64,000 nucleotides of DNA, taken from positions 69,318,001 through 69,382,000 of the forward strand of contig NW_024704742.1 of the NCBI RefSeq assembly GCF_018977255.1, written 5' to 3'. Below, one piece after another: positions 14,893-59,468 of the stretch. Made by a program: the position numbers and the translations under genes. Under the pieces are notes generated by a model, which was not told where the DNA came from, ran no database searches, and worked only from the letters and a program-made list of their open reading frames with translations. Source of the DNA: Callorhinchus milii. Taxonomy: Eukaryota. Position 1 is the first letter of the stretch. Each line of letters begins with the position of its first letter.

Positions 14893-14946
14893 TCACTTGA
14901 CCTTTTTGCTGACAGACTTGTAGACGATATCTCCATCAGTCATTGT
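14893..14946 (-). CDS. fabp1: copy 2 exon 4 (coding part)
   Basis: TTCCAG acceptor, TMTDGDIVYKSVSKKVK then TGA, AATAAA ~40 nt downstream. Confidence 0.92.
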   Translation of the reverse strand, partial: TMTDGDIVYKSVSKKVK

Positions 14947-17900
14947 CTGGAACGAGATGATAAAATAACAACAACTTGGATTTATATAACGCCCTCAACG
15001 CCAGACGGCGTCTCAGAGAGCTTCACAATAACAGATCCCGGGGCCGAGCCAGTGGGAGGGGGAGGAAGGTGACCAAAATATTATGAAGTAGTAACTGTGT
15101 ACTGTGTAGGGGAACATGACAGCCAGCTTTCATGCAGTAATGCCCCGCAAATAGTCATAAAGTCTGTGGTTTCCTGTAGCTCAGTGGTTAGAGCACTTGT
15201 TTTGCAAGCGAGAGACCTGGGTTTGATTCCCAGCAGAGTGAAACCTTGGGGAAGTTTCCTTGCTCCATTACTTATTCTGCCTGATAATAATCCCTCAAGA
15301 AAAAAAAACAATAATAGAAGACGTGAAAAGCGCTATATCAAATGCAAGAATTATTATTATTATTATAAAGTCAATGACCGATTTTATCTGGGGCATTGTG
15401 GGCCATGACAGCAGGAGAGAGAAACTCTCTTCTCTTTTCCAATAATGCCATAGGATCTTTAACATCCACCGGTAGGTGGGACCTCAGTTTAGTGTCAGCC
15501 TGGCTCAGTGGTAACACTCTCACCTCAATTTTCTTTGGTGGGAAGGGATTATTACTTTCGGAAAGCGATACGACTAACAACGGGGTCCCTAATTACTGTG
15601 AGGTAAACAGAAGCATGTAGGGTATGGAAACTTGCCTAAGTTTTCGCCCTACCCAGGAATCAAACACAGGTCCTCTCGGTTGCGAGGCGAGTGTGTTACC
15701 CATTACACTATGGGATTTCAGAATTTCTTGGAGATGTCCTTCTGATGTGATAAGGCGCTATACCAAACGCAAGGATTATTATTAACGTATCATTAGAAAG
15801 ACAGCGACTCTGACAATGTAGTACTGCCCCCAGCACTGGACTGGAGCATCAGCCTAGACTGGCAGCTCAAAGTCCCAAAAGTGCAACTTGAACCCACAAC
15901 CTTCTGACTCAACAACGACAACAAATAACACTGCATATCGGAAAGACATCCCAGGATGCTGGAAAGAAAGAGTGCTGCTGCCTTTCACATTGGCAGCATG
16001 TCCCAAAGCACTTGTGACTGGGCACCCAAGACAGGAGTAGGAGACAAGCTCGGGTGGGTGGAGGTGTGGGGGTGGGTGGGCGGGATGGGGCGGTGTATGA
16101 GTCCGAAAGCACAGTTCAATAGGAAAGACGGCTTCAAAAAGTAAAGCTGATTTTAAAATACTAACAAATTTGGGACGCTGTGAAATGTCAAAAATATCAG
16201 AGGAAATCTAGACCCAGGAGGATTCCCCACCACCCCACCCGTACTCTCCCCCCTCCCCCACCCTATGGGCTATAAGACTGAGACGACGTGGAATTTCAGG
16301 CCATGACTCAGCTCCCGAAGTGCCTCCCATTGGAACCTAATCTTTCCAATGTTTGAGGGCTGATGTATTCCACAGACTTGGCATTGCACACACTGACAAT
16401 CAGCCACGAGGAGCTGAGCAAAGGCTCACCAGGAGTCCTGCTCCCCAACCTCATCCACGTCCATCCAACTTTCCCCAGCCATTCCTCTCAACAGCAACTT
16501 ACACTAATCAATTTGTTCCCTTTCAGCTCGGTGACAGTCTTCACGTTGTCCATTTGTCCGATCAGTCTAGTGGGTCCATCAGAGTTGACCGTTACCTTGG
16601 TGAGGAATATAGAGCTCAGTCATTCATGTGTTCATATGGCTTCAGGAGAGGCCACTTCAATACACTGAGGAAGATCTATTTTGGTTGACTGCCTGACCAG
16701 TGGTAGCGCTCTCGCCTCTGGGTCAGGAGGTTGTGGGTTCAAGCATATCGGGACCACTTTACACTGCGAAGCGCTTTGAGACGTCTCGATGATGTGCTAA
16801 GGCACTATATCAAATGCAAGGATTATTATAAAATACACAGTCACAACACTTTACCAGTCCTGGACATTGAGCTACAGGACTCCACGAGTTCCAATGCACT
16901 TTTCTCCCAGTGTCCTTGTCAACAAATCCCAAATAAAATTGGTCATTTACTTCATGGCTGTTTGTGGGACACTGTTGTGCACAAACTGGCTGCAGCGTTT
17001 CGCCCACAAAATATACAGTCAAAACCACTTTACACTGCGAAGCGCTTTGACACGTCTCGATGATGTGCTAATGCACTGTATTAAAAGCAAGGATTATTAC
17101 AAAGTACACAGACATTACACTTTACCTGTCCTGGACAATAATCCTGACCCATAAAATTCATCGTTAACTTGTGGGACATTGCTGTGGGCACATTGAATGC
17201 AACTACACTTTCCAGTAACAGTACAGTTGAAGCGCTTTGAGAGGACTTGATGACTTGGAATTGTTCAACATCAAATATAAGGAATATTATTTATTATTTG
17301 TATTATTTATCCCCACTTCCCCATCCACCTTGGTACAGATCTGTTTGAGGTCTATAAGTTCACCTGGTCTCAGCCTTAACACAACTATGCAACGCTTCAT
17401 CATTTTGTTTCGTTACAATAACATTTCATAATGTTTCTCAGGTGTCAATCTGGCTCAGTCGATTGCGCTCTCGCCCCTGATTCAGAAGGTTGTGGGCTCA
17501 AGTCCCAAACTAGCTCCATTTGGAACTCCTGTAGTTTAGGCTAACACTCCAATGCAGTGCTGGGGGAAAGCTGCATTAACAGAGGTGCCGTCATTCGGAT
17601 GAGACAAGGTACCCTCTGCCTGTTCAGGCGGATGTTAAAGATCCCGTGGCACTACTGAAAAAGAGAAGAGAGTTTCTCACAATGTCCTGATCGACAATCC
17701 TCCAGTTAAATCAGTCAGTCAATTGTTTGTGGGAAATTGCTATGTGCAAAACTGGCTGCCACTTTCGCCTGCAAAATACACAGTGACAGTAAAATCCTTT
17801 GAAGCACTTTGAGATGTCTTGATGACAGGATAAAGTGCTGAATCAAATGCAACAACAACAACAAGATTCCATTTATAAAGCGCCTTTCACGTCAGGAGGA

Positions 17901-20900
17901 CGTCCCAAGGCGCTGCACAGTTGGGTCATGACCCGAGCAGGGGGGAAATGGTCAGGGTGAGGGGAGGGAAGGGAGGGAGCGAGGAGGGGGGAAATGGTCA
18001 GGGTGAGGGGAGGGAAGGGAGGGGGCGAGGAGGGGGGAAATGGTCAGGGTGAGGGGAGGGAAGGGAGGGAGCGAGGAGGGGGAAGAGAGTCGAGAGGGGA
18101 GCTGAAGGCTCGGTCAAAGAGAAAGGTTTTGAGACCGGCCTTGAAGGAGGAAAGGGAGGAGGCGGCGAAGGCACTGGGGATAGAGTTCCAGAGCCTCGGG
18201 GCTGAGAGGCTGAAGGCCCGACCACCGATGGTAGGGCGGTTGGGGCGGGGGACGTGGAGCAGACCGGAGCCAGAGGAACGGAGGGTACGGGCAGGTAGGT
18301 AGGGGATAGTAGGTCAGAGAGGTAGGAGGGAGCGAGGCCGTGAATGGCCTTGTAGGTGAGGATGAGGATCTTGAAATCAATCCTCTGGAGGATGGGGAGC
18401 CAGTGGAGGCGAGCGAGGGTGGGAGTGATGTGGTCCCGAAGCCTGGTGCGGGACAGTACACGAGCTGCAGAGTTCTGAATGACCTGCAGCTTGTGGAGGG
18501 AGTGGCGGGAAGGCCGGCGAGGAGAGAGTTCCCATAGTCCAGCCTTGAGGTGACAAAGGCGTGAACCAGGGTTTCAGCAGCGTGAGGGGTGAGGTAGTGC
18601 CGTAGTCTGGCGATATTCCGGAGGTGATGGAAGGCGGTGCCAGTTGTGGTGCGGATGTGAGGGAGAAAGGACAGCTCAGGGTCGAACAAAACGCCGAGGT
18701 TCCTGACTGGCTTTGAGAGGTGGAGAGTGCAGCCTTGGATGCTGATGGTGTCAGCGCCTGAGGTGCAAGGATTATTATTAACCAAAACGGGGTGACATGA
18801 AGCTGACATGTAGATTTGGTTCTATGATTTTTAAGGATTACTCTGAATAAGACCAGAGAGAAACCTTATAACAACACAACAGGATATATTTAGTGCCTTC
18901 ATACAGAGTAGCTCGGAACGTTTAACAGTGGTGGAGCCTAACACCGAGGCAGGTGAGAGAGGAGGTGACTGTAAGTATGGTTAAACAAGAGCCCATCCTA
19001 ACAAATAACATAGAGAGGGTTACAGAGAGCGAGAAGTGAGAGAGACGTGACAAAGACTTCAGGAAGGAAAGGGAGTTTGATTACAGAAAAAAGATAATAA
19101 AAACTATGCGTAGTCCTGTGATTTTTTTAAAAGATTGCGTGCAGAAGTGATGTCAGTAAACCCACACTAACTCAGTAGGCCCTTCACATTTTTCCTCGCC
19201 ACTGGCTCCCTGTCATAGAACAAATCGATTTCCAGATCCTCTCACTCATCTACAAATCCCTTCACACTCTGAGACCTCCTTACCTTTATGATTTGCTTTC
19301 TCTCCACTAGCTCTGGCCTCCTGCTCATCCTTCGTCCCCTCTGCTCCACCATCAGCAGCCGTGCTTTCAGCCACTGCACACCAAAGCTTTGGAACTCTAT
19401 CCCGCAATCCCTCCACCTTGCCCCCTCTTTCTCCTCTTTTAGATCATGACTGAAGACTTTCCTCTTTGACTGAGTTTAAGGTCACCACCTCCCTCCCCCC
19501 GGCTCAATGTCATGCTCCGCCATTGTTTAAGCGCTCTGAGACATTGCCCTGTGTGAAGAGCGCTGTGTAAATTCAAGTTCTTGTCATGCATTTAATTTTT
19601 AGCTGTTGGTATGGGAGGAGATTTTGAAATGCCATCTCCATACCTCGCCTCTCACTAGCCAAATGACTATCTTCTGTGCTGTGAATATCTATGGCTGTAT
19701 GAAGCATGGCGTGCCCTGGCATCAAGTCTCAGATGAATGTTTGGAGTCACGTGATTGAGGTAAGTTACCTTGAACTTTTTTCCAGTGAAGGTATGAATCA
19801 TTGCCTCTTTCCCCAGAGTAAACTCGTTGACGTGTTGCGTATTGCTTAATGAGGTGATCATTTTGAAATGGTCGCCTTCTTGGATGATATTGGTCACCCA
19901 GCCAATGGCCTTAGTTTGCTCAATGTCTTCATTTGTGAGACCTAGAAATAAACAGATCATCATTTCAAATGGTCAATTGTACCTATTTACCTAAGTCCAT
20001 ATTAACCTGTCTGCTTCCTCCCACCATCGGCGGTGAGGCCAACTGCGTCTCTGCCCCCACCCTTTGGAACTCCTCCCCAAGGTCCCTTCACCTCACTCCC
20101 TCCCTTGCCTCCTTCAAGGCAAGTTTCAAGATCTTCTTCGACCCCGCCTTCAGTCACCCTCCTGCCCGACCCTCCCTACCTTCCAACCGTCCTGATCCCA
20201 ACTCCCTGCTCAGGTCCAAAACCTTGACTAACCAGCGCCTTAGAATGCCCTCTTGACGTGAAAGGTGCTATAAAAATGTAATTTGTTGTTATTGTATTTA
20301 TTTGTGGATTTCTTAACACAACAATTAAGGACTTTTTCCAATGGAGCAGAATAAATATTATTACATTTACATATTTACGTTTAAATATTACATTTGATAC
20401 AGCGCCTTTTCACGTTGTTACAAAATCTCAAAATACTAAATAATAATTCTTGCATTTGATGTAGCATCTTAGCATGTCGTTGAGATGTCTCAAAGTGCTT
20501 TACAGGAAATCCACAAGATTAGGGCCCATGGAATTAAGGGGAATATATTAACATGGATTGAAGAATGGCTGACGGGAAGAAACCAAAGAGTATGGATAAA
20601 TGGATCCTTCTGAGATTGGCGGGATGTGACTAGTGGAATGCCACAAGGATCAGTGCTTGGGCCTCAACTATTTACAATCCACATCAACGATCTAGATGAG
20701 GACATCGAACTTAATATATCTAAATTCGCGGATGACACTAAACTAGCAGGGAGACTAAACACCGAGGATGACATTAGAAAAAGGCAACGAGATATAGATA
20801 GGTTAGGTGAGTGGGCAAATAGGTGGCAGATGAAGTATAATGTAGGGAAGTGTGAATTCATCCACCTCGGTGAGAAAAACAGAAGAGCAGATTATTTTTT

Positions 20901-23680
20901 AGAAGGGGAGTGACGAGATAGTGTTAGCGTTCAGAGGGACTTGGGTGTCCTTGTACACCAGTCACAAAAGTTATTTTACAGGTATAGCAAGCAATCAGGA
21001 AGGCTAACAGTATGTTGGCATTTGTTACAAAAGGGTTAGAATATAAGATTAGGGTAGTTTTGCTGCAACTGTACAAGGCCCTGGTGAGAGCACACCTGTG
21101 TGTGCAGTTTTGGTCTCCTTATTTAAGAAAGGACGTACTTGCCTTGGAGGAGTTACAATGTAGATTCATTAGGTTGGTACCAGGGATGAGGTCGATGAGT
21201 TATGAGGATAGGTTGAGTAATTTAGGCCTATATTCTCTGGAATATAGAAGAATGAGAGGTGATCTTATAGAAACCTATAAGATTATTAAGGTGCATGACA
21301 GAATAGATAGTGGGAGACTTTTTCCCTGGTTGGAGAAACTATAACAGACTGTGAAGGTATGAATCATTGCCTCTTTCCCCAGAGTAAACTCGTTGACGTG
21401 TTGCGTCACAGTCTTAAAATTCGGGGTAAGCCCTTTCGCACTGACTTGAGGAAAAACTTCTTCACTCAGAGGGTAGTGCATTTATGGAATTCTCTACCCC
21501 AAAGGGCTGTAGATTCTCAGTCCTTGAACGTATTCAAGACTGAGATTGATAGATTTCTTCTGGATAAAAAGATTAAGCGATATGGGGATAAGGCGGGTGG
21601 GTGGAGTTAGAATAGATCAGCCATGATCTTATTGAAAGGCGGGGCAGGCTAGAGGGGCCGAATGGTCTACTCCTGCTGCTAATTCTTATGTTCTTATGAT
21701 ATACTGTAAAGTGAAGTGACTGTGTGTTTTTGTGGGTGAATGTGGCAGACAATTTGCACTCAGCAACATCCCACAAAGAGCCATGAAGTGAGTAATCAAT
21801 TATATTTGCGGGATTGTCGGTCAGGACCCCAGGAGAGAGAAACTCCTTTCTCTTTTTGGTTAGTGCCATGGGACCATTAACATCCACCTGAACAGGCAAA
21901 GGGGACCTTGGTTTAACATCTCATTTGAAGGATGGAACCCCAGCATTCCATTTGAGTTTCAGGCTAGGCTATATGGGTTTCAAGTCCTAATGTAGGACTT
22001 CAAGCCACAACCTTCTGACTGAAAGTAGATAGTGCTACCAATTGAGCCAGGCTGATGCTTCAGAAGGGATTGATAGTGCTTTGCTGGAGCACCACAAAAC
22101 TGCCAAACAGGGCAACAAATATCCTTCAGTTTGGTGGTGGGCAGCTGGTGGGGGCACAGTTGCAAGATTGCTGATATGCTGGATTGTCAGATGAAATGTT
22201 AAACAAAGATCCATCTATTCCTGTTCAAATCCCTTCATGCTCTGGCACCTTCCTACCTCTCCAACCTGCTTACTCCTGAACCCACTACCCGTTGCTTCCA
22301 CTCGACTGGCTCTGGCCTCCTGCTTGACCATCGGTGGCTGTACTTTCAGCCACTTTGCCCCGTCCTTCCCCATCTTCAGGTTCCGCCTGAAGACTCTTAG
22401 ACTCTTCAGCTGTGCCTAGGGTCACCTGCCCATGAGCTCAGTGTCATGCTTTACCACTGTCAAGTGCTCTGGGATGCTATATAAATGCAAATTGTTATTG
22501 TTAATGGTAAGGATCCCATGGTGCTATTCGTAAAGAGAAGGTGCAAACAATCCCCAGATAAAATTGATTACTCACTCCATGGCTGTTTGCGAAACCGGGA
22601 GGTAAAGACTTGTGTTGTTTGGATGGGTTGGGTTGTTTTGCCCTTCTCTGGGCTGGATTTGGTTCTGTTTGGTTGGTTCCTGGTCTAGATTTCATAACAC
22701 TGGGTTGGGTTACTGCCCCCCCCCAACCCGCCTCACCCACAAACACACCCCAACACACACACATACTATTTTTACTAATTTGCCCACTGTATAATTCATT
22801 GCACACGACGTATCTGTTCTGCAATATCCAATGCATATATCTACGTTAGTCTCACATTTTTAAATATAGCAGTTGCTCTGTGTATGTTCTTAAACTCAGA
22901 TCAACAATGATCCAGGATAGATTGAATGCCATCGCAATCCTATCTATTGCGCACGGTTTGACACATTCATTAAGTTTTGATCAAACCCTGGGTTTGCTGA
23001 TTCCTAACGGGTAGTGTGGTCCCAGCTGGACAAGCAGCGGTAAAGCTTGCCAGACAGTTCTCTCAATGGCAAGCTGTGCAGCTTTAACTGGTTAAACTTC
23101 AGCAGGTACCCCATCACACGCTCTTGGGTCCTCAAGCCTTGGATCTTGTCAGAGGATGCCTGGTACTCTTCGGAATTAGATAAGCGGCATTCAGCTCTCC
23201 AAGGAAATAGTGTACATTCCATTCTAATACATGAGAATTTCCACGTGTAGAAGGGATGCATGGAATATTGCTATGTATTTTATAGTTGAGCATAAGTAGC
23301 CAATTTGCGCACAACAATGTCCCACAAACAGCCGTGAAATGAAGTGTCACATCAAACGTTGCAGTGCTCCCCCCTCCCCCCCAACACTGCAGCCAATACA
23401 CCCTGAAATTCTGGAACACTCTCTCTCAATCCTTCCACCTTGTCCCCTCCTTCCCCATCTTCAAGTTGCGCCTGATGACCTTCCTCTTCGACCTAGGGTC
23501 AACCCCCCTTTCCCCCGGCTCGGTGTTGTGCTCCACCACTGTCAAGCGCTCTGGGACCCTGCATGAGGGGAGCTATATAAATGCAAGTTGTTGTCGTCAG
23601 CCCAGACACTCACCAATAGCTCTCATAAATGGTTCAAAGTTCTCCTGACTCTCTAGTTCATACTGCCCAGTGAAGGCCAT
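14893..23680 (-). CDS. fabp1: FABP1-like fatty acid-binding protein, copy 2, 4 exons, 128 aa, intact
   Basis: Exons 23680-23614, 19941-19769, 16595-16503, 14946-14893 (67/173/93/54 nt), all GT-AG. Protein MAFTGQYELESQENFEPFMRAIGLTNEDIEQTKAIGWVTNIIQEGDHFKMITSLSNTQHVNEFTLGKEAMIHTFTGKKFKVTVNSDGPTRLIGQMDNVKTVTELKGNKLISTMTDGDIVYKSVSKKVK. Gap-free against recalled human FABP1. AATAAA at 14846-14851 (minus). Confidence 0.93.
15168..15367 (+). mobile_element. Internally deleted tRNA-derived SINE in intron 3 (also ~35582-35768, ~51944-52146)
   Basis: A/B boxes and (ATT)n tail. Confidence 0.8.
16503..16595 (-). CDS. fabp1: copy 2 exon 3
   Basis: CCAAG acceptor, GTAAGT donor, 93 nt, VTVNSDGPTRLIGQMDNVKTVTELKGNKLIS. 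Confidence 0.92.
17448..17850 (+). mobile_element. Older DeuSINE/AmnSINE-like SINE (related copies e.g. 570-925 minus, 4315-4530, 54588-55000)
   Basis: TGGCTCAGT..CTCTCGCC..TCAGAAGGTTGTGGG head and CCTGTTCAGGYGGATGTTAAAGATCCC core; family name recalled, not searched. Confidence 0.65.
17853..18761 (-). mobile_element. Young 5'-truncated L2 insertion in intron 2 of copy 2
   Basis: (CAA)n tail; TGCAA duplicated; empty site at ~54987 in copy 4; RLDYGNSLLAGLP motif. Confidence 0.9.
17941..18083. repeat. Three tandem copies of a ~45-bp G-rich unit in the L2 3' UTR
   Basis: GGGGAAATGGTCAGGGTGAGGGGAGGGAAGGGAGGG.GCGAGGA x3; single copy in the sister element at ~13885-13930. Confidence 0.85.
19769..19941 (-). 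CDS. fabp1: copy 2 exon 2
   Basis: TTTCTAG acceptor, GTAACT donor, 173 nt, encodes ...NEFTLGKE...TFTGKKFK. Confidence 0.93.
20505..21698 (+). mobile_element. CR1 LINE, 5'-truncated and degenerate, intron 1 of copy 2
   Basis: RT motifs SGMPQGSVLGP and KFADDTKL; stops and frameshifts; TTCTTATG tail. Confidence 0.92.
23614..23680 (-). CDS. fabp1: copy 2 exon 1
   Basis: ATG to phase-1 G, GTGAGT donor, 67 nt. Confidence 0.93.
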
Positions 23681-35297: not shown

Positions 35298-35351
35298 TCA
35301 CTTGACCTTTATGCTGACAGACTTGTAGACGATATCTCCATCAGTCATTGT
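35298..35351 (-). CDS. fabp1: copy 3 exon 4 (coding part)
   Basis: 54 nt ending in TGA. Confidence 0.92.
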   Translation of the reverse strand, partial: TMTDGDIVYKSVSIKVK

Positions 35352-38300: not shown

Positions 38301-41300
38301 CGGGAGGAGATTTTGAAATGCCATCTCCATACCTCGTCTCTCACTAGCCAAATGACTATCTTCTGTGCTGTGAATATCTATGGCTGTATGAAGCATGGCG
38401 TGCCCTGGCATCAAGTCTCAGATGAATGTTTAGAGTCACCTGGTTGAGGTAAGTTACCTTGAACATTTGTCCAGTATAGGTTTCAATGTTTGCCTCTTTC
38501 CCCAGAGTAAACTCGTTGACGTGTTGTCTGTTGTTAAGTCTGGTCATCATTTTGAAATGGTCGCCTTTTTGGATGATATCGGTCACCCAGCCAATGGCCT
38601 TAGTTTGCTCAATGTCTTCATTTGAGACACCTAGAAATAAACAGATATCATTTAAAAGGGTCAATTGTACCCAATTACCTAACTCCATATTAACCTGTCT
38701 GCTTCCTCCCACCATCGGCGGTCAGGCCTACTGCGTCTCTGCCCCCATCCTTTGGAATTCCTCCCCACGGTCCCTTCCTCACTCCCTCCCTTGCCTCCTT
38801 CAAGGCAAGTTTCAAGATCTTCTTCTTCGACCTGCCTTCAGTCACCCTCCTTTGACTAACCAGCGCCTTAGAATGTCCTCTCGACGTAAAAGGTGCTATA
38901 CAAATGCAATTTGTTGTTCTTGTATTTATTTGTGGATTTCTTAACACAACAATTAAGGACTTTTTCCAATGGAGCAGAATAAATATTATTACATTTACAT
39001 ATTTACATTTAAATATTACATTTGATACAGGGCCTTTTCACGTTGTTGCGACATCTGAAAATACTAAATAATAATTCTTGGATTTGATGTAGCGCCTTAT
39101 CATATCATTGAGATGTCTCAGAGTGCTTTATAGGAAATCCACAAGATTAGAGCTCATGGAATTAAGGGGAATATATTAGCATGGATTGAAGAATGACTGA
39201 CAGGAAGATAACAAAGAGTAGGGCTAAATGGGTCCTTCTGAGATTGGCGGGATGTGACTAGTGGAGTGCCACAAGGATCAGTGCTTGGGCCTCAACTATA
39301 TACAATCTACATCAATGATCTCGACGGGGACATCGAACTTAATATATCTAAATTCGCGGATGACACTAAACTAGGAGGGAGAGTAAACACCGAGGATGAC
39401 ATTAAAAAAAGGCAACGAGATATAGATAGGCTAGGTGAGTGGGCAAATAGGTGGCAGATGAAGTATAATATTGGGAAGTGTGAGGTCATCCACCTTGGTG
39501 GCAAAAACAGAAGAGCAGATTATTTTTTAGAAGGGGAAAGAAGGGCAGGTACAGCAAGCAATCAGGAAGGGGAGAGACAAGATAGTGTTAGTGTTCAGAG
39601 GGACTTGGGCATCCTTGTACACCAGTCACAAAAAGTTAGCTTGCAGGTATAGCAAGGAATCAGGAAACCTAACAGTATGTTGGCATTTGTTACAAAAGGG
39701 TTAGAATATAAGAGTGAAGTCTTGCAGCCACTGCATAGGGCCCTGGTGAGACTGCACCAAGAGTATTGTGTGCAGTTTTGGTCTTCTTGTTTAAGAAAGG
39801 ATGCACTCGCCTTGAAGGGGTACAATGTAGATTCACCAGGGATGAGGGGGATGAGTTATGAGGAGAGGCTGAGTAATTTAGGCCTATATTCTCTGGAATA
39901 TAGAAGAATGAGAGGTGATCGTATAGAAACCTATAAGATTATTAAGGGGCATGACAGAACAGATAGTGGGAGACATTATTCCCTGGTTGGAGAAACTATA
40001 ACCCGGGTACACAGTCTTAAAAAATTTTTCACACTGCCTTGAGGAAAAATGTCTTCACTCAGAGGGTAGTGAATTTATGGAATGCTCTACCCCAAAGGGC
40101 TGTAGATGCTCAGTCCTTGAACATATTCAAGACCGAGGTTGATAGATTTCTTGTGGATAAAGGGATTAAGTGATATGGGGATAAGGCGGGTGGGTGGAGT
40201 TAGAATAGATCAGCTATGATCTTATTGAAAGGCGGGGCAGGCTAGAGGGGCCGAATGGCCTACTCCTGCTGCTAATTCTTATGCTCTTATGATATACTGT
40301 AAAGTGAAGAGACTTGTGTATTTTTGTGGGTGAATGTGGCAGACAATTTGCACTCAGCAACATCCCACAAAGAGCCATGAAGTGAGTAATCAATTATATT
40401 TGAGGGATTGTCGGTCAGGATCCCAGGAGAGAGAAACTCCTTTCTCTTTTCAGTCAGTGCCATGGGACCATTAACATCCACCTGAACAGGCAAAGGGGAC
40501 CTTGGTTTAACATCTCATTTGAAGGATGGAACCCCAGCATTCCATTTGAGTTTCAGGCTAGGCTATATGGGTTTCAAGTCCTAATGTAGGACTTCAAGCC
40601 ACAACCTTCTGACTGAAAGTAGATAGTGCTACCAATTGAGCCAGGCTGATGCTTCAGAAGGGATTGATAGTGCTTTGCTGGAGCACCACAAAACTGCCAA
40701 ACAGGGCAACAAATATCCTTCAGTTTGGTGGTGGGCAGCTGGTGGGGGCACAGTTGCAAGATTGCTGATATGCTGGATTATCAGATGAAATGTTAAACAA
40801 AGGTCCATCTATTCCTGTTCAATTCCTTTCATGCTCTGGCACCTTCCTACCTCTCCAACCTGCTTACTCCTGAACCCACTACCCGTTGCTTCCCCTCGAC
40901 TGGCTCCGGCCTCCTGCTTGACCCCTCCTTCGCCATCTTCAGGTCCTGCCTGAAGGCTCTTAGACTCTTCAGCTGTGCCTAGGGTCACCTACCCCTGAGC
41001 TCAGTGTCATGCTTTACCACTGTCAAGCACTCTGGGATGCTATATAAATGCAAATTGTTATTGTTAATGGTAAGGATCCCATGGTGCTATTCGTAAAGAG
41101 AAGGTGCAAACAATCCCCAGATAAAATTGATTACTCACTCCATGGCTGTTTGCGAAGGCGGGAGGTAAAGACTTGTGTTGTTTGGATGGGTTGGGTTGTT
41201 TTGCCCTTCTCTGGGCTGGATTTGGTTCCGTTTGGTTGGTTCCTTTTCTAGATTTCATAACACTGGGCTGGGTTACTGCACCCCCCAACCCGCCTCACCC

Positions 41301-42304
41301 ACAAACACACCCCAACACACACGCATACTATTTCTACTACTTTCCCACTGTGTAATTCATTGCACACAACGTATCTGTTCTGCCATATTCGGTGCATATA
41401 TCTACGTTAGTCTCACATTTTCAAATGTAACAGTTGCTCTGTGTATGTTCTTAAACTACCAGCAACAGTCTGTGAAGGTGAATGTTTGTTCTCAGAGATG
41501 AGTCGCATCAAAAACTCAGTCACATCAACAATGATCCAGGATAGATTGAATGCCATCGCAATCCTATCTATTGCGCACGGTTTGACACATTCACTAAGTT
41601 TTGATCAAACCCTGGGTTTGCTGATTCCTAACGGGTAGTGTGGTCCCAGCTGGACAAGCAGCGGTAAAGCTTGCCAGACAGTTCTCTCAATGGCAAGCTG
41701 TGCAGCTTTAACTGGTTAAACTTCAGCAGGTACCCCATCACACGCTCTTGGGTCCTCAAGCCTTGGATCTTATCAGAGGATGCCTGGTACTCTTCGGAAT
41801 TAGATAAGCGGCATTCAGCTCTCCAAGGAAATAGTGTACATTCCATTCTAATACATGAGAATTTCCACGTGTAGAAGGGATGCATGGAATATTGCTACGT
41901 ATTTTATAGTTGAGCATAAGTAGCCAATTTGCGCACAACAATGTCCCACAAACAGCCGTGAAATGAAGTGTCACATCAAACGTAGCAGTGCTCCCCCCTC
42001 CCCCCCAACACTGCAGCCACTACACCCTGAAATTCTGGAACACTCTCTCTCAATCCTTCCACCTTGTCCCCTCCTTCCCCATCTTCAAGTTGCGCCTGAT
42101 GACCTTCCTCTTCGACCTAGGGTCAACCCCCCTTTCCCCTGGCTCGGTGTTGTGCTCCACCACTGTCAAGCGCTCTGGGACCCTGCATGAGGGGAGCTAT
42201 ATAAATGCAAATTGTTGTCGTCAGCCCAGACACTCACCAATAGCTCTCATAAATGGTTCAAAGTTCTCCTGACTCTCTAGTTCATACTGCCCAGTGAAGG
42301 CCAT
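35298..42304 (-). CDS. fabp1: FABP1-like fatty acid-binding protein, copy 3, 4 exons, 128 aa, intact
   Basis: Exons 42304-42238, 38630-38458, 36730-36638, 35351-35298. Protein MAFTGQYELESQENFEPFMRAIGVSNEDIEQTKAIGWVTDIIQKGDHFKMMTRLNNRQHVNEFTLGKEANIETYTGQMFKVTINSDGPTKLVGKMEHIKTVTELKGNKLISTMTDGDIVYKSVSIKVK. AATAAA at 35251-35256 (minus). Confidence 0.93.
36638..36730 (-). CDS. fabp1: copy 3 exon 3
   Basis: 93 nt, AG/GT flanks. Confidence 0.92.
37003..37322 (-). mobile_element. tRNA-derived SINE in intron 2 (also 53703-54022)
   Basis: Reverse head GAGCTACAGGACTCC; (AAT)n tail. Confidence 0.85.
38458..38630 (-). CDS. fabp1: copy 3 exon 2
   Basis: 173 nt, AG/GT flanks. Confidence 0.92.
39135..40291 (+). 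mobile_element. CR1 LINE, degenerate, intron 1 of copy 3
   Basis: SGVPQGSVLGP, KFADDTKLGG, CR1 3' tail. Confidence 0.92.
41395..41612 (+). mobile_element. hAT transposase C-terminal dimerisation domain relic in intron 1 (internally deleted versions at ~1705-1855, ~22840-22985, ~58625-58775)
   Basis: FSNVTVALCMFL / LPATVCEGECLFSEMSRIKNSVTSTMIQDRLNAIAILSIAH matches the hATC pattern P.T....ER.FS....IK...RSTM.Q.RLN.LA.LSIE. Confidence 0.8.
42238..42304 (-). CDS. fabp1: copy 3 exon 1
   Basis: 67 nt, GTGAGT donor. Confidence 0.92.
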
Positions 42305-46655: not shown

Positions 46656-47960
46656 TCAGGGTGTAAATTCAGGTAGTGGTAGTTTTATTTTTACACACAA
46701 CACTGCAATAATCGCGCAGCGCCCTTTGCTTTTTGTACAGCTGATCCCTTTGCTGACGCTTCTATACAGGAGTTGTCCGATTTTCCTTATCTGGAATGAG
46801 ATAATTTTCATTATTTGGAACGATACCAAACATTTACTGAGCATTAATAATAACATAATAATCCTTTCATTTGATATAGTGCCTGATCATGTCCTCGAGA
46901 GAGCACCAAATATATTATAAAATAAACTGTTTACTTTCTGGGTGAAATGTGGCAGCCAATTGCACACAGTCGTGTCCCACAAACAGTCATGGATTGAGTG
47001 AACACATCATAATTTTTTAAATTTATTTTACACTTCACTCATGACACTTTACAGTGAATCCTGCAAAGAGCTTTGAGACAGTTGCCATATCAAACACACA
47101 CTTAAGAGACTTTTAAGTACAGAGACAGGTTTCCTGTCGCATGTCGCATACCGGTGGGATGGAAAGAAAAAAGATTAGATGGAATTTCAGGCCTGCTCAG
47201 TGCCCCCCATCAGACGATTATCTTTTGGAGTCCTGTAGCTCAGTTGTTAGAGCGCTCACCTCATAAGTGAGAGGACCTGGGTTCGATTCCCAGGCAGAGT
47301 GAAACGTTGGGCAGGTTTCCTTACTCCACGTGCCTCTGTTTATCCAGTAGTAAGTAGGAACCAAGTTGTTAGTCATAATCCCTTAAAAAAGAAACTTGGT
47401 CACTTCAAACCACGACTGTTTGTTGGCCACTGCTGGGCCCAATTGGCTGCCGCGTTTCACCCACGAAATATGCAGTCAATTTACTTTACAGTATATTCGG
47501 TGAAATGCTTTGAGACGCCTCGAAGATGTGATAAGCTGCCATATCAAATGCAAGGATTATTATCTTTCTAGCGTTTGAGTGCCGGCTCAATGTGCTGACT
47601 CGGCATCTCACGCGCTGACAATCAGCCACCAGGAACTGAGCAATAAGAACATAAGAACATAAGAATTAGGAGCAGGAGTAGGCCATTCGGCCCCTCGAGC
47701 CTGCCCCACCATTCAATAAGATCATGGCTGATCTTCAGACTTAACTCTAATTACCTGCCCTATCCACATATCCGCTATTCACTCTGTTTTTTAAAAATCT
47801 TTCAGTCTCAGCCTTCAGACTGATAGATTTTTAAAAAATAGAGGGATGACGCTCAGCAGTCAGTGGGTGAACTTGGTCAGAGGATAAAGGTTAAGTCTGA
47901 ATCACAAGGAGTGCTCCTGTTACTTGGGTAAGGAATAAAGTGCTCACTCAGTCATTGAAA
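46656..47960 (-). pseudogene. Relic FABP 3' half, unit C
   Basis: Exon-4-like IRKIGQLLYRSVSKGI from 46790. Confidence 0.7.
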
Positions 47961-50900: not shown

Positions 50901-51666
50901 CAAGCCATGACCCTCTCTGCCTTTCCTCACCTCTTCAACATCGCCTGGCTCCACCGCAGGACGCTGAAACCCTCACACATGCATTCAGAACATCCAGGCT
51001 TTACTATGCAAACTCACTGCTTATTGGCCTCACCAACTCCTCCCTCCATAGGCTGCAGGTCATCCAGAACTCTGAAGCCGGTGTCCTCTCCCGTACCAGG
51101 CTCTGTGACCCTATCACCCCCATCCTTGCTTGACTCCGCTGGCTTCCCATCACTCAGAGGATACAATTCAAATTCCTGGTCCTCACCTTCAAAGCCCTCC
51201 ATGGCCTTGCATCACCCTACCTCTGCAACCTCCTGAGCCCCTACAATCCTTCCAGCTCCCTCCGCTCAGCGGGCTCTGGCCTGCTTCACATCCCCTGCCC
51301 ACCTATGGCAGGCGGGCCTTCAGCCACTCTGCCTCCACCCTCTGGAACACCATCCAACAGTCCCTTCTCCTCGCCCCCATCCTTGCCTCCTTGAAGACCC
51401 ATCTTAAGACCCTCCTCTTCGATGGTGCTTTCAATCATCCTGCTCCCCCCCCCGCCCTCCACCCTCCCCAATCCCGACCCCCAGCTCGGATCCGAAATAC
51501 TGACTGTCCAGCGCTTTGGTATGTCCTCCCGATGTGAGAAGCGCGATACAAATGTAATTTTGTTGTTCTTGTTGTTAATCTGACATAACGTTGTACTATA
51601 CTGAAGTAGAATTGGTAGTTTTATTTTGACAGACAGTGTTGTATAATTAACTACACAATGTCCCTT

Positions 51667-51720
51667 TCACTTGACCTTTTTGCTGACAGACTTGTAGACG
51701 ATATCTCCATCAATCATTGT
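51667..51720 (-). CDS. fabp1: copy 4 exon 4 (coding part)
   Basis: 54 nt ending in TGA. Confidence 0.92.
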   Translation of the reverse strand, partial: TMIDGDIVYKSVSKKVK

Positions 51721-54700
51721 CTGGAACGAGATGATAAAATAACAACAACAACTTGGATTTATATAGCGCCCTCCACGCCGGACGGCGTCTCAGAGCGCTT
51801 CACAATAACATGTCCCGGCGCCGAGCCAGGGGAGGGGGAGGAAGGTGACCAAAATACTGTGAAGTAGTAACTGTGCACTGTGTAGGGGAACACAGCAGCC
51901 ATCTTTCATGCAGTAACGCCCCAGAAATAATCATAAAGTCTGTGGTTTCCTGTAGCTCAGTGGTTAGAGCACTTGTTTTGCAAGCGAGAGACCTGGGTTT
52001 GATTCCCGGCAGAGTGAAACCTTGGGGAAGTTTCCTTGCTCCATTACTTATTCTGCCTGATAATAATCCCTCAAGAAAAAAAAACAATAATAGAAGACGT
52101 GAAAAGCGCTATATCAAATTCAAGAATTATTATTATTATTATTATAAAGTCAATGATCGATTTTATCTGGGGCATTGTGGGCCATGACAGCAGGAGAGAG
52201 AAACTCTCTTCTCTTTTTCAATAATGCCATAGGATCTTTAACATCCACCGGTAGGTGGGACCTCAGTTTAGTGTCAGCCTGGCTCAGTGGTTACACTCTC
52301 ACCTCAATTTTCTTTCGTGGGAAGGGATTATTACTTTCGGAAAGCGATATGACTAACAACGGGGTCCCTAATTACTGTGAGGTAAACAGAGGCATGTAGG
52401 GTAAGGAAACTTGCCGAACTTTTCGCCCTACCCAGGAATCAAACACAGGTCCTCTCGGTTGCGAGGCGAGTGTGTTAACCACTACACTGTGGGATTTCAG
52501 AATTTATTTGAGATGTCCTTCTGATGTGATAAGGCGCTATACCAAACGCAAGGATTATTATTAACGTCTCATTAGAAAGACAGCGACGCTGACAGTGTAG
52601 TGCTGCCCTCAGCGCTGGACTGCAGCATCAGCTTAGACTGGCAGCTCAAATTCCCAAAAGGGCAACTTGAACCCACAACCTTCTGACTCAACAACAAATA
52701 ACACTGCATATCGGAAAGACATCCCAGGATGCTGGAAGGAAAGAGTGCTGCTGCCTTTCACATTGGCAGCATGTCCCAAAGCACTTGTGACTGGGCACCC
52801 AAGATAGGAGTAGGAGCCAAGCTCGGGTGGGTGGAGATGTCGGGGTGGGTGGAGATGTGGGGTGAGTGTGCGGGATGGGGAGGTGTATGAGTCCGAAAGC
52901 ACAGTTAAATAGGAAAGACGGCTTTGAAAAGTAAAGCTGATTTTAAAATATTTGGGACGCTGTGAAATGTCAAAAATATCAGAGGAAATCTAGACCCAGG
53001 AGGATTCCCCACCACCCCACCCGTACTCTCCCCCCTCCCCCACCCTATGGGCTATAAGACTGAGATGATGTGGAATTTCAGGCCGTGACTCAGCTCCCGA
53101 AGGGCCCCCCATTAGAGCCTTATCTTTCCAGTGTTTGAGGGCTGATGTATTCCACAGACTCGGCATTGCACACACTGACAATCAGCCACGAGGAGCTGAG
53201 CAAAGGCTCACCAGGAGTCCTGCTCCACAAGCCCATCCAAGTCCATCCAACTTTCCCCAGCCATTCCTCTCCTGACGTGAAAGGCGCTTTATAAATGGAA
53301 TCTTGTTGTTGTTGTTGTTGTTCTCAATAGCAACTTACGCTAATCAATTTGTCCCCTTTCAGCTCGGTGACAGTCCTTATGTGTTGCATTTTTCCAATCA
53401 GTTTAGTGGGTCCATCAGCGTGGATCGTTACCTTGGTGAGGAATACAGAGCTCAGTCATTCATGTGTTCATATGGCTTCAGCAGGAGGCCACTTTAATAC
53501 ATTGAGGCAGATCTATTTTGGTTGACTGCCTGACCAGTGGTAGAGTTCTCGCCTCTGGGTCAGGAAGTTGTCGGGACTTGGAATCACATAGTCTAAGTGG
53601 ACACTCCAAAGCAGCACTGTGGGTGTGTTGCATTGTCGGAAGTGCCATCCATCAAATGAGACATTAAACCGAGGTCCCATCTGACTGTTCAGGTAGACGT
53701 TAAATAATAATAATAATAATAATTCTTGCTTTTGATATTGTGCTTTTCACGTCTTCTAGATGTTTCAAAGTGCTTCACAGAATATGCTGTAAAGTGAATT
53801 GACCGAATATTTGTGGGCGAAACTCGGCAGCCAATTGTGCACAGCAGTGTCCCACAAACAGTCGTGGATTGAAAATGACCAATTTATTATTTTTTGTTTT
53901 GGAGGGATTATTATTAGGTGTGTGGAGTAAGGAAACTTGCCCAAGGTTTTGCACTGCCTGGAATTGAAACCAGGTGTCTCGCTTGCAAGGCGAGTGCTCT
54001 AACCATTGAGCTACAGGACTCCACGAGTTCCAATGCACTTTTCTCCCAGTGTCCTTGTCAACAAATCCCAAATAAAATTGGTCATTTACTTCATGGCTGT
54101 TTGTGGGACATTGTTGTGTACAAACTGGCTGCTGCGTTTTGCCCACAAAATATATAGTCAAAACCACTTTACACTGCGAAGCGCTTTGACACGTCTCAAT
54201 GATGTGCTAACGCACTGTATCAAAAGCAAGGATTATTACAAAGTACACAGACATTACACTTTACCTGTCCTGGACAATAATCCTGACCCATAAAATTCAT
54301 TGTTAACTTGTGGGACATTGCTGTGCGCACATTGACTGCAACTACACTTTCCAGTAACAGTACAGTTGAAGCGCTTTGAGAGGACTTGATGACTTGGAAT
54401 TGTTCAACATCAAATATAACGAATATTATTTATTATTTGTATTATTTATCCCCACTTCTCCATCCACCTTGGTACAGATCTGATTGAGGTCTATAAGTTC
54501 ACCTGGTCTCAGCCTTAACACAACTATGCAACGCTTCATCATTTTGTTTCGTTACAATAACATTTCTTAATGTTTCTCAGGTGTCAATCTGGCTCAGTCG
54601 ATTGCGCTCTCGCCCCTGATTCAGAAGGTTGTGGGCTCAAGTCCCAAACTAGCTCCATTTGGAACTCCTGTAGTTTAGGCTAACACTCCAATGCAGTGCT

Positions 54701-57700
54701 GGGGGAAAGCTGCATTAACAGAGGTGCCGTCATTCGGATGAGACAAGGTACCCTCTGCCTGTTCAGGCGGATGTTAAAGATCCCGTGGCACTACTGAAAA
54801 AGAGAAGAGAGTTTCTCACAATGTCCTGATCGACAATCCTCCAGTTAAATCAGTCAGTCGATTGTTTGTGGGAAATTGCTATGTGCAAAACTGGCTGCCA
54901 CTTTCGCCTGCAAAATACACAGTGACAGTAAAATCCTTTGAAGCACTTTGAGATGTCTTGATGACAGGATAAAGTGCTGAATCAAATGCAAGGATTATTA
55001 TTAACCAAAACGTGGTGACATGATGCTGACATGTAGATTTGGTTCTATGATTTTTAAGGTTTACTCTGAATAAGACCAGAGAGAAACCTTATAACAACAC
55101 AACAGGATTTATTTAGTGCCTTCATACAGAGTAGCTCGGAACGTTTAACAGTGGTGGAGCCTAACACCGAGGCAGGTGAGAGAGGAGGTGACTGTAGGTA
55201 TGGTTAAACAAGAGCCCAGCCTAACAAATAACATAGAGAGGGTTACAGAGAGCGAGAAGTGAGGGAGACGTGACAAAGACTTCAGGAAGGAAAGGGAGTT
55301 TGATTACAGAAAAAAGATAATAAAAACTATGCGTAGTCCTGTGATTTTTTTAAAAGATTGCGTGCAGAAGTGATTTCAGTAAACCCACACTAACTCAGTA
55401 GGCCCTTCACATTTTTCCTCGCCACTGGCTCCCTGTCATAGAACAAATCGATTTCCAGATCCTCTCACTCGTCTACAAATCCCTTCACATTCTGAGACCT
55501 CCCTACCTTTATGATTTGCTTTCTCTCCACTAGCTCTGGCCTCCTGCTCATCCTTCGTCCCCTCTGCTCCATCATCAGCAGCCGTGCTTTCAGCCACTAC
55601 ACACCAAAGCTTTGGAACTCTATCCCGCAATCCCTCCACCTTGCCCCCTCTTTCTCCTCTTTTAGATCATGACTGAAGACTTTCCTCTTTGACTGAGTTT
55701 AAGGTCACCACCTCCCTCCCCCCGGCTCAATGTCATGCTCCGCCATTGTTTAAGCGCTCTGAGACATTGCCCTGTGTGAAGAGCGCTGTGTAAATTCAAG
55801 TTGTTGTCATGCATTTAATTTTTAGCTGTTGGTACGGGAGGAGATTTTGAAATGCCATCTCCATACCTCGCCTCTCACTAGCCAAATGACTATCTTCTGT
55901 GCTGTGAATATCTATGGCTGTATGAAGCATGGCGTGCCCTGGCATCAAGTCTCAGATGAATGTTTGGAGTCACGTGATTGAGGTAAGTTACCTTGAACTT
56001 TTTTCCAGTGAAGGTATGAATCATTGCCTCTTTCCCCAGAGTAAACTCGTTGACGTGTTGCCTGTTGCTTAATGAGGTGATCATTTTGAAATGGTCGCCT
56101 TCTTGGATGATATCGGTCACCCAGCCAATGGCCTTGGTTTGCTCAATGTCTTCATTTGAGAGACCTAGAAATAGACAGATCATAATTTCAAATGGTCAAT
56201 TGTACCTATTTACCTAAGTCCATATTAACCTGTCTGCTTCCTCCCACCATCGGCGGTCAGGCGATGACACTAAACGAGGAGGGATAGTAAACACTGAGGA
56301 TGACATTAAAAAAAGGCAACAAGATATAGCTTGGCTGGGTGAGTGGGCATATAGGTGGCAGATGAAGTATAATGTAGGAAAGTGTGAGGTCATCCACCTC
56401 GGTGGGAAAAACAGTAGAGCAGATTATTTTTTAGAAGGGGAGAGAAGGGCAGGTACAGCAAGCAATCAGGAAAGCTCGCGGTATATTGGCAATTGTTACA
56501 AAAGGGTTAAAATATAAGAGTAGGGAAGTCTTGCTGCAACTAAACAAGTTGTGGAGTCCTGTAGCTCAGTGGTTAGAGCGCTCGCTTTGCAAGTGAGAGA
56601 CCTGAGTTCAATTCCAGGCAGAGGGCGAAACCTTGGGCAAGTTTCCTTACTCCACACAGAGCCTAATAATAATCCCTCCAAAAAACCAAAAACAATAATA
56701 AATTGGTCATTTTCAATCTACAACTGTTTGTGGGACATTGCTGTGCGCAATTGGCTGCCGAGTTCGCCCACAAATATACAGTCAATTCACTTTAAAGTGT
56801 GTTCTGTGAAGCGCTTTGGGACGTCCTCCCGATGTGAAAAGCGCTATATCAAATGCAAGGAATATTATTATTATTATTAAGGCCCTGGTGAGACTGCACC
56901 TAGAGTATTGTGTGCAGTTTTGGTCTCCTTATTTAAGAAAGGACGTACTTGCCTTGGAGGAGTTACAATGTAGATTCATTAGGTTGGTACCAGGGATGAG
57001 GGGGATGAGTTACGAGGACAGGTTGAGTAATTTAGGCCTATATTCTCTGGAATATAGAAGAATGAGAGGTGATCTTATAGAAACCTGTAAGATTATTAAG
57101 GGGCACGACAGAACAGATAGTGGGAGACTTTTTCCCCTGGTTGGAGAAACTATAACCTGGGTTCACAGTCTTAAAATTCAGGGTAAGCCCTTTCGACTGA
57201 GTTGAGGAAAAACTTCTTCACTCAGAGGGCAGTGAATTTATGGAATTCTCTACCCCAAAGGGCTGTAGATGCTCAGTCCTTGAACGTATTCAAGACTGAG
57301 GTTTATAGATTTCTTGTGGATTCAGGGATCAAGGGCTATGGGGATAAGGCGGGTGGGTGGAGTTAGAATAGATCAGCTATGATCTTATTGAAAGGCGGGG
57401 CAGGCTAGAGGGGCCGAATGACCTACTCCTGCTGCTAATTCTTATGTTCTTATGGTATACTGTAAAGTGAAGTGACTGTGTGTTTTTGTGGATGAATGTG
57501 GCAGACCATTTGCACTCAGCAACATCCCACAAAGAGCCATGAAGTGAGTAATCAATTATATTTGAGGGATTGTCGGTCAGGATCCCAGGAGAGAGAAACT
57601 CCTTTCTCTTTTCAGTCAGTGCCATGGGACCATTAACATCCACCTGAACAGGCAAAGGGGACCTTGATTTAACATCTCATTTGAAGGATGGAACCCCAGC

Positions 57701-59468
57701 ATTCCATTTGAGTTTCAGGCTAGGCTATATGGGTTTCAAGTCCTAATGTAGGACTTCAAGCCACAACCTTCTGACTGAAAGTAGATAGTGCTACCAATTG
57801 ATGCTTCAGAAGGGATTGATAGTGCTTTGCTGGAGCACCACAAAACTGCCAAACAGAGCAACAATTATCATTTAGTTTGGTGGTGGTGGGCGGGTGGGGG
57901 CACAGTTGCAAGATTTCTGATATGCTGGATTATCAGATGAAATGTTAAACAAAGGTCCATCTATTCCTGTTCAAATCCCCTCATGCTCTGGTACCTTCTT
58001 ACCTCTCCAACCTGTTTACTCCTGAACCCACTACCCGTTGCTTCCACTCGACTGGCTCTGGTCTCCTGCTTGACCATCGGTGGCAGTACTTTCAGCCACT
58101 TTTCCCCCTCCTTCCCCATCTTCAGGTCACACCAGAAGACTCTTAGACTCTTCAGCTGTGCCTAGGGTCACCTGCCCTAGTGCCTAGGGTCACCTGCCCC
58201 TGTGCCTAGGGTCACCTGCCCCTGAGCTCAGTGTCATGCTTTGCCACTGTCAAGCGCTCTGGGATGCTATATAAATGCAAATTGTTGTTGTTTAATGGTA
58301 AGGATCCCATGGTGCTATTCGTAAAGAGAAGGTGCAAACAATCCCCAGATAAAATTGATTACTCACTCCATGACTGTTTGCGAAGCCGGGAGGTAAAGAC
58401 TTGTGTTGTTTGGATGGGTTGGGTTGTTTTGCCCTTCTCTGGGCTGGATTTGGTTCTGTTTGGTTGGTTCCTGGTCTAGATTTCATAACACTGGGTTGGG
58501 TTACTGCCCCCCCAACCCCCCTCACCCACAAACACACCCCAACACACACACATACTATTTTTACTAATTTGCCCACTGTATAATTCATTGCACACGACGT
58601 ATCTGTTCTGCCATATCCAGTGCATATATCTACGTTAGTCTCACATTTTTAAATATAGCAGTTGCTCTGTGTATGTTCTTAAACTCAGATCAACAATGAT
58701 CCAGGATAGATTGAATGCCATCGCAATCCTATCTATTGCGCATGGTTTGACACATTCACTAAGTTTTGATCAAACCCTGGGTTTGCTGATTCCTAACGGG
58801 TAGTGTGGTCCCAGCTGGACAAGCAGCGGTAAAGCTTGCCAGACAGTTCTCTCAATGGCAAGCTGTGCAGCTTTAACTGGTTAAACTTCAGCAGGTACCC
58901 TATCACATGCTCTTGGGTCCTCAAGCCTTGGATCTTGTCAGAGGATGCCTGGTACTCTTCGGAATTAGATAAGCGGCATTCAGCTCTCCAAGGAAATAGT
59001 GTACATTCCATTCTAATACATGAGAATTTCCACGTGTAGAAGGGATGCATGGAATATTGCTATGTATTTTATAGTTGAGCATAAGTAGCCAATTTGCGCA
59101 CAACAATGTCCCACAAACAGCCGTGAAATGAAGTGTCACATCAAACGTTGCAGTGCTCCCCCCTCCCCCCAACACTGCAGCCACTACACCCTGAAACTCT
59201 GGAACACTCTCTCTCAATCCTTCCACCTTGTCCCCTCCTTCCCTATCTTCAAGTAGCGCCTGATGACCTTCCTCTTCGACCTAGGGTCAACCCCCCTTTC
59301 CCCCGGCTCGGTGTTGTGCTCCACCACTGTCAAGCGCTCTGGGACCCTGCATGAGGGGAGCTATATAAATGCAAGTTGTTGTCGTCAGCCCAGACACTCA
59401 CCAATAGCTCTCATAAATGGTTCAAAGTTCTCCTGACTCTCTAGTTTATACTGCCCAGTGAAGGCCAT
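51667..59468 (-). CDS. fabp1: FABP1-like fatty acid-binding protein, copy 4, 4 exons, 128 aa, intact
   Basis: Exons 59468-59402, 56164-55992, 53431-53339, 51720-51667. Protein MAFTGQYKLESQENFEPFMRAIGLSNEDIEQTKAIGWVTDIIQEGDHFKMITSLSNRQHVNEFTLGKEAMIHTFTGKKFKVTIHADGPTKLIGKMQHIRTVTELKGDKLISTMIDGDIVYKSVSKKVK. AATAAA at 51620-51625 (minus). Confidence 0.93.
53339..53431 (-). CDS. fabp1: copy 4 exon 3
   Basis: 93 nt, AG/GT flanks. Confidence 0.92.
55992..56164 (-). CDS. fabp1: copy 4 exon 2
   Basis: 173 nt, AG/GT flanks. Confidence 0.92.
56262..57454 (+). mobile_element. CR1 LINE, degenerate, intron 1 of copy 4, interrupted by a SINE
   Basis: Same element as the other units, with a left-side deletion and a SINE at 56553-56879. 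Confidence 0.9.
56553..56879 (+). mobile_element. tRNA-derived SINE inserted in CR1, copy 4 only
   Basis: Full head and (ATT)n tail. Confidence 0.85.
58158..58223. repeat. 22-bp tandem triplication, copy 4 only
   Basis: GTGCCTAGGGTCACCTGCCC.. x3; single copy in the other units. Confidence 0.85.
59402..59468 (-). CDS. fabp1: copy 4 exon 1
   Basis: 67 nt, GTGAGT donor. Confidence 0.92.

Follow-up and report, generated by a model that had tools for sequence, protein, structure and literature searches.

Tandem copies of an FABP1-type gene lacking the fatty acid-anchoring arginine in Callorhinchus milii

A 64,000 nt stretch of the Callorhinchus milii genome (positions 69,318,001 to 69,382,000 of contig NW_024704742.1 in assembly GCF_018977255.1, forward strand; hereafter the window) carries a tandem array of genes encoding proteins of the liver fatty acid-binding type, FABP1, in which serine replaces Arg122, a residue that contacts the ligand carboxylate. 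Three complete genes lie on the minus strand: A (14893..23680; exons at 23680-23614, 19941-19769, 16595-16503 and, with the stop codon, 14946-14893), B (35298..42304; exons at 42304-42238, 38630-38458, 36730-36638 and 35351-35298) and C (51667..59468; exons at 59468-59402, 56164-55992, 53431-53339 and 51720-51667). Position 14893 corresponds to the stop codon of gene A, and position 59468 to the ATG of gene C. Although only the first exon of a fourth gene, D, falls inside the window (2482..2548, minus strand), with exons 2-4 located 1.1-5.3 kb to the left of it, this copy too is intact over its full length of 387 nt. Judged from the sequences, the most likely reading, in which we place about even confidence, is that A-D represent a functional FABP1-derived subfamily with altered head-group specificity.

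All four genes have exons of 67, 173, 93 and 54 nt, introns that are uniformly GT-AG and an open frame of 387 nt (128 codons), the four-exon layout with conserved sizes expected of the intracellular lipid-binding protein (iLBP), or cytosolic FABP, superfamily. A degenerate nucleotide pattern for GDIVYKSV had three exact minus strand matches in the window (14912-14934, 35317-35339 and 51686-51708), against a chance expectation of 0.01, each of them in the final exon of one of these genes. The first-pass annotation had described three complete copies, intact and alignable to FABP1 without gaps, and had taken them as an amplified FABP1-like family; both points are confirmed, with gene D in addition. 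The products of A, B and C are identical to great-ape FABP1 (P0150) at 59-60 of 127 positions, with no internal gap and one extra C-terminal residue, and the identity of A-D to this protein is 46-47%. P0001 (XP_007896130.1), a C. milii database protein 100% identical to exons 2-4 of gene B by tblastn, scored 56.3 bits against Pfam PF14651 (Lipocalin_7; cut-off 25.4), and P0241 (XP_042199647.1), exons 1-3 of which are those of gene A, scored 93 bits. In a phmmer search of the PDB, P0001 aligned to human L-FABP chains without gaps (residues 18-123 against 20-125, E = 1e-20), with FABP6 (gastrotropin) at 1e-13 and liver-basic FABP at 5e-13. An AlphaFold2 model of the same protein (predicted local distance difference test score 79.4), in which strand A is not modelled from the true sequence because exon 1 of P0001 is a spurious alternative N terminus, has ten strands and two helices, hence a predicted ten-stranded beta-barrel with a helix cap. 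Foldseek placed human L-FABP first (template modelling score, TM, 0.88; root mean square deviation 1.9 A) and L-FABP in all of the top 12 PDB matches (TM 0.84-0.88), whilst cellular retinol-binding protein (CRBP) structures appeared first at rank 44, with 22% identity.

Phylogenetic analysis agrees that A-D are of FABP1 type, with FABP6 and FABP10 more distant. Two maximum likelihood trees were built, of 33 and 31 rows and 128 columns, the long rows of Chanos, Rhinatrema and Myxine being omitted from the second. The iLBP phylogeny proposed in the first-pass annotation, with FABP6 and FABP10-like outgroups, places A-D inside FABP1 with support of 92-93/94; A-D themselves group together with support of 100/100, and the stem leading to them is long, at 0.55-0.56 changes per site. 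Their sister is gene F (K4G6D8 / NP_001279758.1, 'fatty acid-binding protein, liver-like'), a single-copy gene 15 kb to the right of the window, with support of 99/93 and 100/99 in the two trees; neither fixes the placement of F and A-D together relative to the remaining FABP1 sequences. That A-D might stand in for a missing FABP6 was considered and ruled out, as C. milii has two FABP6-like genes on contig C13. These two tandem gastrotropin-like genes lie at C13:7389475-7398923; the table of a survey of the family (PMC7193176) marks FABP6 as absent from the species.

The residues that distinguish A-D were assessed in human numbering, assigned by alignment, against 119 other FABP1-type proteins found among the best 120 of 1044 hits, with two F sequences excluded. 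FABP1 takes up two long-chain fatty acids per molecule. In experimental structures of human FABP1, as described in a preprint (bioRxiv 10.1101/2024.07.25.605175), the carboxylate of the inner oleate contacts Ser39, Arg122 and Ser124, and that of the outer oleate contacts Lys31 and Ser56; this confirms the head-group roles that the first-pass annotation had given to Arg122, Ser39, Ser124 and Lys31. At the inner site A-D have Thr39, Ser122 and Ser124, and at the outer site Gln31 and Asn56. Position 122 is arginine in 118 of the 119 other proteins and lysine in one, a Scyliorhinus paralogue, whilst position 31 is lysine in all 119; none of them has lost both Arg122 and Lys31, and four copies are likewise found in none. 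The substitutions R122S, K31Q, L28D, G37W, I59H, T93G and L115D, listed in the first-pass annotation for the three complete copies, recur in every copy in the alignment. R126K is also present throughout, but it is trivial, as lysine occupies this position in 6/119 other FABP1 proteins and in the neighbouring genes E and G.

Defining as unusual any state fixed in A-D and found in no more than two of the 119 proteins, there are 25 such states. Four of these (Thr52, His59, Gly93 and Ser122) are common to gene F, and 21 are specific to A-D. Seven of the specific changes fall in helix alpha-II and its turn (D26N, L28D, K31Q, G32T, D34A, K36G and S37W); others include L115D, S56N and S100T. Unusual states are found at 8 of the 21 ligand-contact positions listed in the same preprint (bioRxiv 10.1101/2024.07.25.605175) and at 17 of the remaining 106 positions (odds ratio 3.2, one-sided p = 0.026); this enrichment makes it fair to call the pocket remodelled, as had been claimed. 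At neither Asp28, itself a contact position, nor Asp115 is there an acidic residue in any of the 119 other proteins. Ser124, Thr/Ser39, Thr102, Phe15, Phe63 and Ile41 are retained. Serine at position 122 might simply have been the ordinary state of chondrichthyan FABP1, which would have undone the first-pass interpretation, but it is not: canonical elasmobranch FABP1 reads YKR in 5/5 cases (Heptranchias, Pristiophorus, Pristis, Cetorhinus and Stegostoma), and the C. milii neighbours E and G have arginine too, encoded by CGG and AGA respectively.

The first-pass account, in which residue changes were followed by amplification, needs correction in part. As paralogue F also has R122S, I59H and T93G, these three changes predate the amplification and are not specific to A-D; only L28D, K31Q, S/G37W and L115D are, having arisen along the A-D stem. 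Between A-D and F, the synonymous divergence (dS) is 0.73-0.81, and the ratio of nonsynonymous to synonymous divergence (dN/dS) is 0.34-0.40. An FABP1 paralogue would first have exchanged Arg122 for serine and acquired His59, Gly93 and Thr52, a state that persists in F. One descendant would then have altered helix alpha-II and the portal, through the seven changes given above, and further cavity residues (50M, 54L, S56N and L115D), before tandem duplication of a 17-21 kb unit produced the four copies. Comparison of the window with itself displays this array, the units of which are 17-21 kb long and 89-99% identical to one another, and the copies are mosaic: in D, exon 2 is of the C type, exon 3 of the A type and exon 4 of the B type. 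Gene B is the most divergent, with Glu72, Tyr74 and Gln77.

A-D encode Ser122 with TCT, F with AGC. All three bases differ while the neighbouring codons are almost unchanged, and the two codons cannot be interconverted by single steps that keep serine. Ser122 would therefore have been either regained through an intermediate residue or acquired twice, and on either history this codon difference argues that serine at this position has been under selection.

Several features of A-D argue against their decay. None of the four frames is interrupted, each of the 24 splice dinucleotides is canonical and an AATAAA signal lies 42 nt after every stop codon (minus strand; 14846..14851 for gene A, 35251-35256 for B and 51620-51625 for C, with the same offset in D). 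At intron-derived rates, approximately 3.7 indels and 28 substitutions would be expected in the A-D coding sequences. When these neutral rates were simulated, all four frames stayed open with a probability of 0.25 and the splice sites survived with a probability of 0.41; that of having no indel was 0.024, although this last value may be too low, as repeats may inflate the intron indel rate. There are 41 variable nucleotide sites among the copies, 35 of them in codons with differing amino acids, and they are unevenly spread: exons 1-4 contain 2, 22, 15 and 2 respectively, against expectations of 7.1, 18.3, 9.9 and 5.7 (p = 0.023). Exons 2 and 3 together have also diverged faster than the introns, the intron rate matching dS, in the comparisons of A with B (10.9% against 5.15%, p = 2e-4), B with C (9.8% against 4.7%, p = 5.5e-4), B with D (9.0% against 5.0%, p = 0.005) and A with C (7.1% against 4.1%, p = 0.016). 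Taken together, these patterns suggest a mixture of purifying and diversifying selection on A-D. Positive selection inferred from dN/dS alone was rejected as proof, the Nei-Gojobori ratio among the copies being 0.64-1.46 and never significantly above one. The differences between paralogues gave no signal of falling at positions that are generally variable in FABP1 (mean entropy 0.77 vs 0.69, p = 0.16).

If A-D do form a functional subfamily, the proteins are most likely, as FABP1 is, small soluble cytosolic beta-barrel carriers of hydrophobic molecules. In textbook accounts, it is the strand-J arginine that makes intracellular lipid-binding proteins bind acids. With both basic head-group contacts lost, and the only cationic anchor gone, the cavity floor of A-D would be uncharged and rich in hydroxyl groups and histidine. 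We infer that A-D are expressed, adopt an FABP1-like fold and take up hydrophobic ligands, but anchor carboxylates less firmly; their preference would then have moved towards head groups that are bulkier or carry no charge. According to a review (PMC10197203), the beta-J arginine is conserved in acid-binding iLBPs and is glutamine in the retinol-binding CRBP1; the R122Q mutation in FABP1 lowers fatty acid binding only moderately and raises the binding of bulkier ligands. In CRBP1 and CRBP2, according to the same source (PMC10197203), an uncharged polar residue, Gln128, replaces this arginine and the ligand is non-acidic (an alcohol in CRBP1), which provides a precedent for interpreting R122S as a switch in the class of head group. 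Ser122 is likewise uncharged and polar, but the parallel is one of mechanism only: the CRBPs are a different subfamily and, as described above, A-D fall inside FABP1 in the trees and the CRBPs far below L-FABP in the fold search.

A number of results weigh against this reading of A-D. As R122Q retains most fatty acid binding, loss of Arg122 need not alter the class of ligand; the first-pass proposal of a non-carboxylate ligand does not follow from this loss, and is best treated as hypothetical. Of that annotation, the observation itself is confirmed, and the interpretation partly supported. The dN/dS range among the copies would, considered alone, also fit relaxed constraint. The excess divergence of exons 2 and 3 is not significant for C with D (p = 0.24) or A with D (p = 0.084), and the tests are pairwise and non-independent, on an exon partition picked post hoc. 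Nor do the copies vary significantly less at contact positions than elsewhere (2/21 vs 25/106, p = 0.24). The canonical 128-residue protein is absent from all RefSeq and Ensembl models of A-D, which are wrong or partial. Finally, the subfamily is so far known from a single species: neither a word-based search with the gene B protein (5 hits from 6 candidates, all C. milii) nor the best 120 of the 1044 hits contained an A-D-type protein from another species, the material searched covering no other holocephalan genome.

Were A-D ordinary fatty acid carriers amplified for dosage, with Thr39, Ser124, His59 and His72 compensating for the lost arginine, the moderate effect of R122Q described in PMC10197203, the retention of the six pocket residues listed above, the agreement of the copies at 19 of 21 contact positions and the near identity of their 5' flanks and first exons would all be readily explained. 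Such an account sits poorly with the loss of the second head-group contact as well, through Lys31 to glutamine and Ser56 to asparagine, with the acidic residues at positions 28 and 115, and with the enrichment of unusual states at contact positions; moreover, amplification for dosage alone does not predict exons outpacing introns in divergence. We consider it unlikely, but to be taken seriously. Somewhat less probable again is that A-D are young, redundant duplicates of an F-like gene drifting towards pseudogenes, their odd residues representing accumulated damage. A dN/dS of around one among the copies, the aberrant or partial annotated models and the long stem of 0.55 changes per site would be consistent with such drift. 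It would, however, have had to leave every frame, splice site and polyadenylation signal intact in the face of the expected indels and substitutions, and neutral drift does not conserve exons 1 and 4 while exons 2 and 3 exceed the intron rate; furthermore, the 21 states specific to A-D were already fixed when the copies split, and dN/dS relative to F is well below one at the 0.34-0.40 given above.

The number of copies might also be inflated in part by the assembly, with D and A being two haplotypes, or a repeat set collapsed and re-expanded in tandem. The introns of A and D differ at only 60 of 7122 positions (0.84%), and 275-6907 is 99.4% identical to 21407-28055 over 6.6 kb. In addition, the older-assembly model P0003 (A0A4W3IJD8) pairs an exon 2 of D/C type with an exon 3 of A type (Gln94). 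This pairing, absent from the present assembly, may point to variation in haplotype or copy number, to gene conversion or to an error in assembly. Yet A and D differ by five amino acids and seven intron indel events and have different flanking neighbours, and an exon 2 fragment is found in intron 1 of A alone, making the artefact improbable. The 4-5% divergence of B and C from A and D places a minimum of three copies beyond this doubt.

Returning to the reading of A-D as a functional subfamily with altered head-group specificity, mammalian FABP1 (L-FABP; PDB 3STM, 2LKK and 1LFO) provides the solved structures closest to it in sequence, resembling A-D in length, gapless alignment, predicted fold and in having four exons with the same 67, 173 and 93 nt sizes. 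It differs from A-D in having the two basic head-group contacts that Ser122 and Gln31 replace, and in helix alpha-II, which is altered at 7/12 positions in A-D; Asp28, Asp115, Trp37 and His59 are further differences. Gene F shares Ser122, His59, Gly93 and Thr52 with A-D and belongs to the same cluster, but it is only 57-60% identical to them (73-76 of 127 residues), is single copy with an AGC rather than a TCT serine codon, has Arg31, Ser39 and Ser56 and lacks Asp28, Asp115 and Trp37. Tandem duplication of fabp1 is also seen in zebrafish, as fabp1b.1 and fabp1b.2 (PMC7193176), but the teleost fabp1 proteins examined keep Arg122. Arginine has been lost in the bamboo-shark protein GCC37019.1 (P0082, Chiloscyllium punctatum), which has glutamine at position 122 and a model without exon 3. 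Its placement as sister to gene G (99/97) indicates that the G-type paralogue predates the split between sharks and chimaeras, with an independent loss of arginine in bamboo shark; this residue has thus been lost more than once among cartilaginous fish FABP1 paralogues. The first tree had made gene G an orthologue of canonical elasmobranch FABP1, an assignment dropped once the bamboo-shark protein was included.

A bolder possibility, which we put forward only tentatively and regard as rather unlikely, is that F and A-D together constitute a holocephalan FABP1-derived clade in which carboxylate lipids have been given up for ligands with uncharged or bulky head groups, with Ser122 selected and exons 2 and 3 diversifying. 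Alkylglycerol or ether lipids and bile alcohols are typical of, and abundant in, chimaera liver, and would be the hypothetical candidate ligands. If true, non-acid carriers would have arisen a second time, independently of the CRBPs, within the iLBP family. An FABP1 lineage that lacks Arg122 and Lys31, has gained two acidic residues and has then been amplified offers a natural experiment on change of ligand class. No account of the A-D subfamily or of Ser122 was found in a literature search, most subscription journals and supplements lying outside its reach.

The database models that cover A-D depart from the four-exon structure in several ways, and since they are wrong or partial, comparisons based on proteomes miss the proteins. 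In P0241 and P0101, exons 1-3 or 2-3 are followed directly by an alternative 3' exon, at 7698-7549 or 29268-29119, approximately 7 kb downstream, and exon 4 is bypassed; the alternative exon, which serves as the last one in RefSeq models of genes A and B, is intergenic, on the minus strand (7549..7698, with a second copy at 29119-29268; tblastn, 94% identity). P0005, annotated as 'gastrotropin-like', splices gene C into gene B, and other models run into introns. In one model, exon 3 of gene C is joined to exon 2 of gene B out of frame. The alternative exon and C-to-B models may reflect read-through transcripts or annotation artefacts of a tandem array.

Sequencing contigs (Logan) from four public runs, X1-X4, were compared with 39601-59600; repeats dominate these data, and the runs are only presumed to be of RNA, none of those listed being on record as such. 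No A-D intron junction was present among the 15 of 262 contig joints listed for this interval. One X4 contig of 203 nt covers exon 2 (55990-56158) with gene A-type letters, its match ending at the exon 2 donor, as a spliced transcript would, but with 34 letters unplaced this establishes nothing firm; X1 and X4 also have contigs continuing from exon into intron. Stacks of contigs are very deep at several intronic and intergenic bins, for instance 56276-56942, which suggests high-copy repeats. Gene F, by comparison, has a RefSeq record of the NP_ type and three GenBank protein records, which we take to derive from mRNA, as such records do. A full-length cDNA project on six tissues exists (PMC3466250).

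Whole-genome searches together with the flanking sequence reveal a cluster of seven FABP1-like genes over approximately 95 kb, with D, A, B and C on the minus strand followed by E, F and G on the plus strand, head-to-head with the array. A-D-type exon 2 has four matches in the whole C. milii genome, none of them beyond A-D. Gene E, an FABP1-like gene transcribed divergently from the array and keeping Arg122, has its first exon in the window (63697..63763, plus strand) and exons 2-4 to the right of it; it is 69% identical to Heptranchias FABP1 and has a partial database model, V9LHL3 (P0017). Gene G (V9LJ13 / XP_007896233.1), which also retains Arg122, has an acidic C-terminal extension. Both E and G have exons of 67, 173 and 93 nt as in A-D; exons 2 and 3 are described as conserved among four-exon FABP genes in the survey mentioned above (PMC7193176). 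The same survey lists just two fabp1 genes for C. milii (PMC7193176), hence the cartilaginous fish repertoire is richer: the cluster comprises seven genes, one or more paralogue types (G) are common to sharks, and Arg122 has been lost twice independently.

Two minor features of the array were noted. The exon 2 fragment in intron 1 of gene A (21351..21404, minus strand) is 54 nt long, identical to the middle of exon 2 and adjoins the junction between repeat units at 21406/21407, perhaps as a relic of the duplication that gave rise to A and D. GC skew is strongly negative (-0.19 to -0.36) once per repeat unit, downstream of each gene, at 8001-12000, 28001-36000 and 48001-52000.

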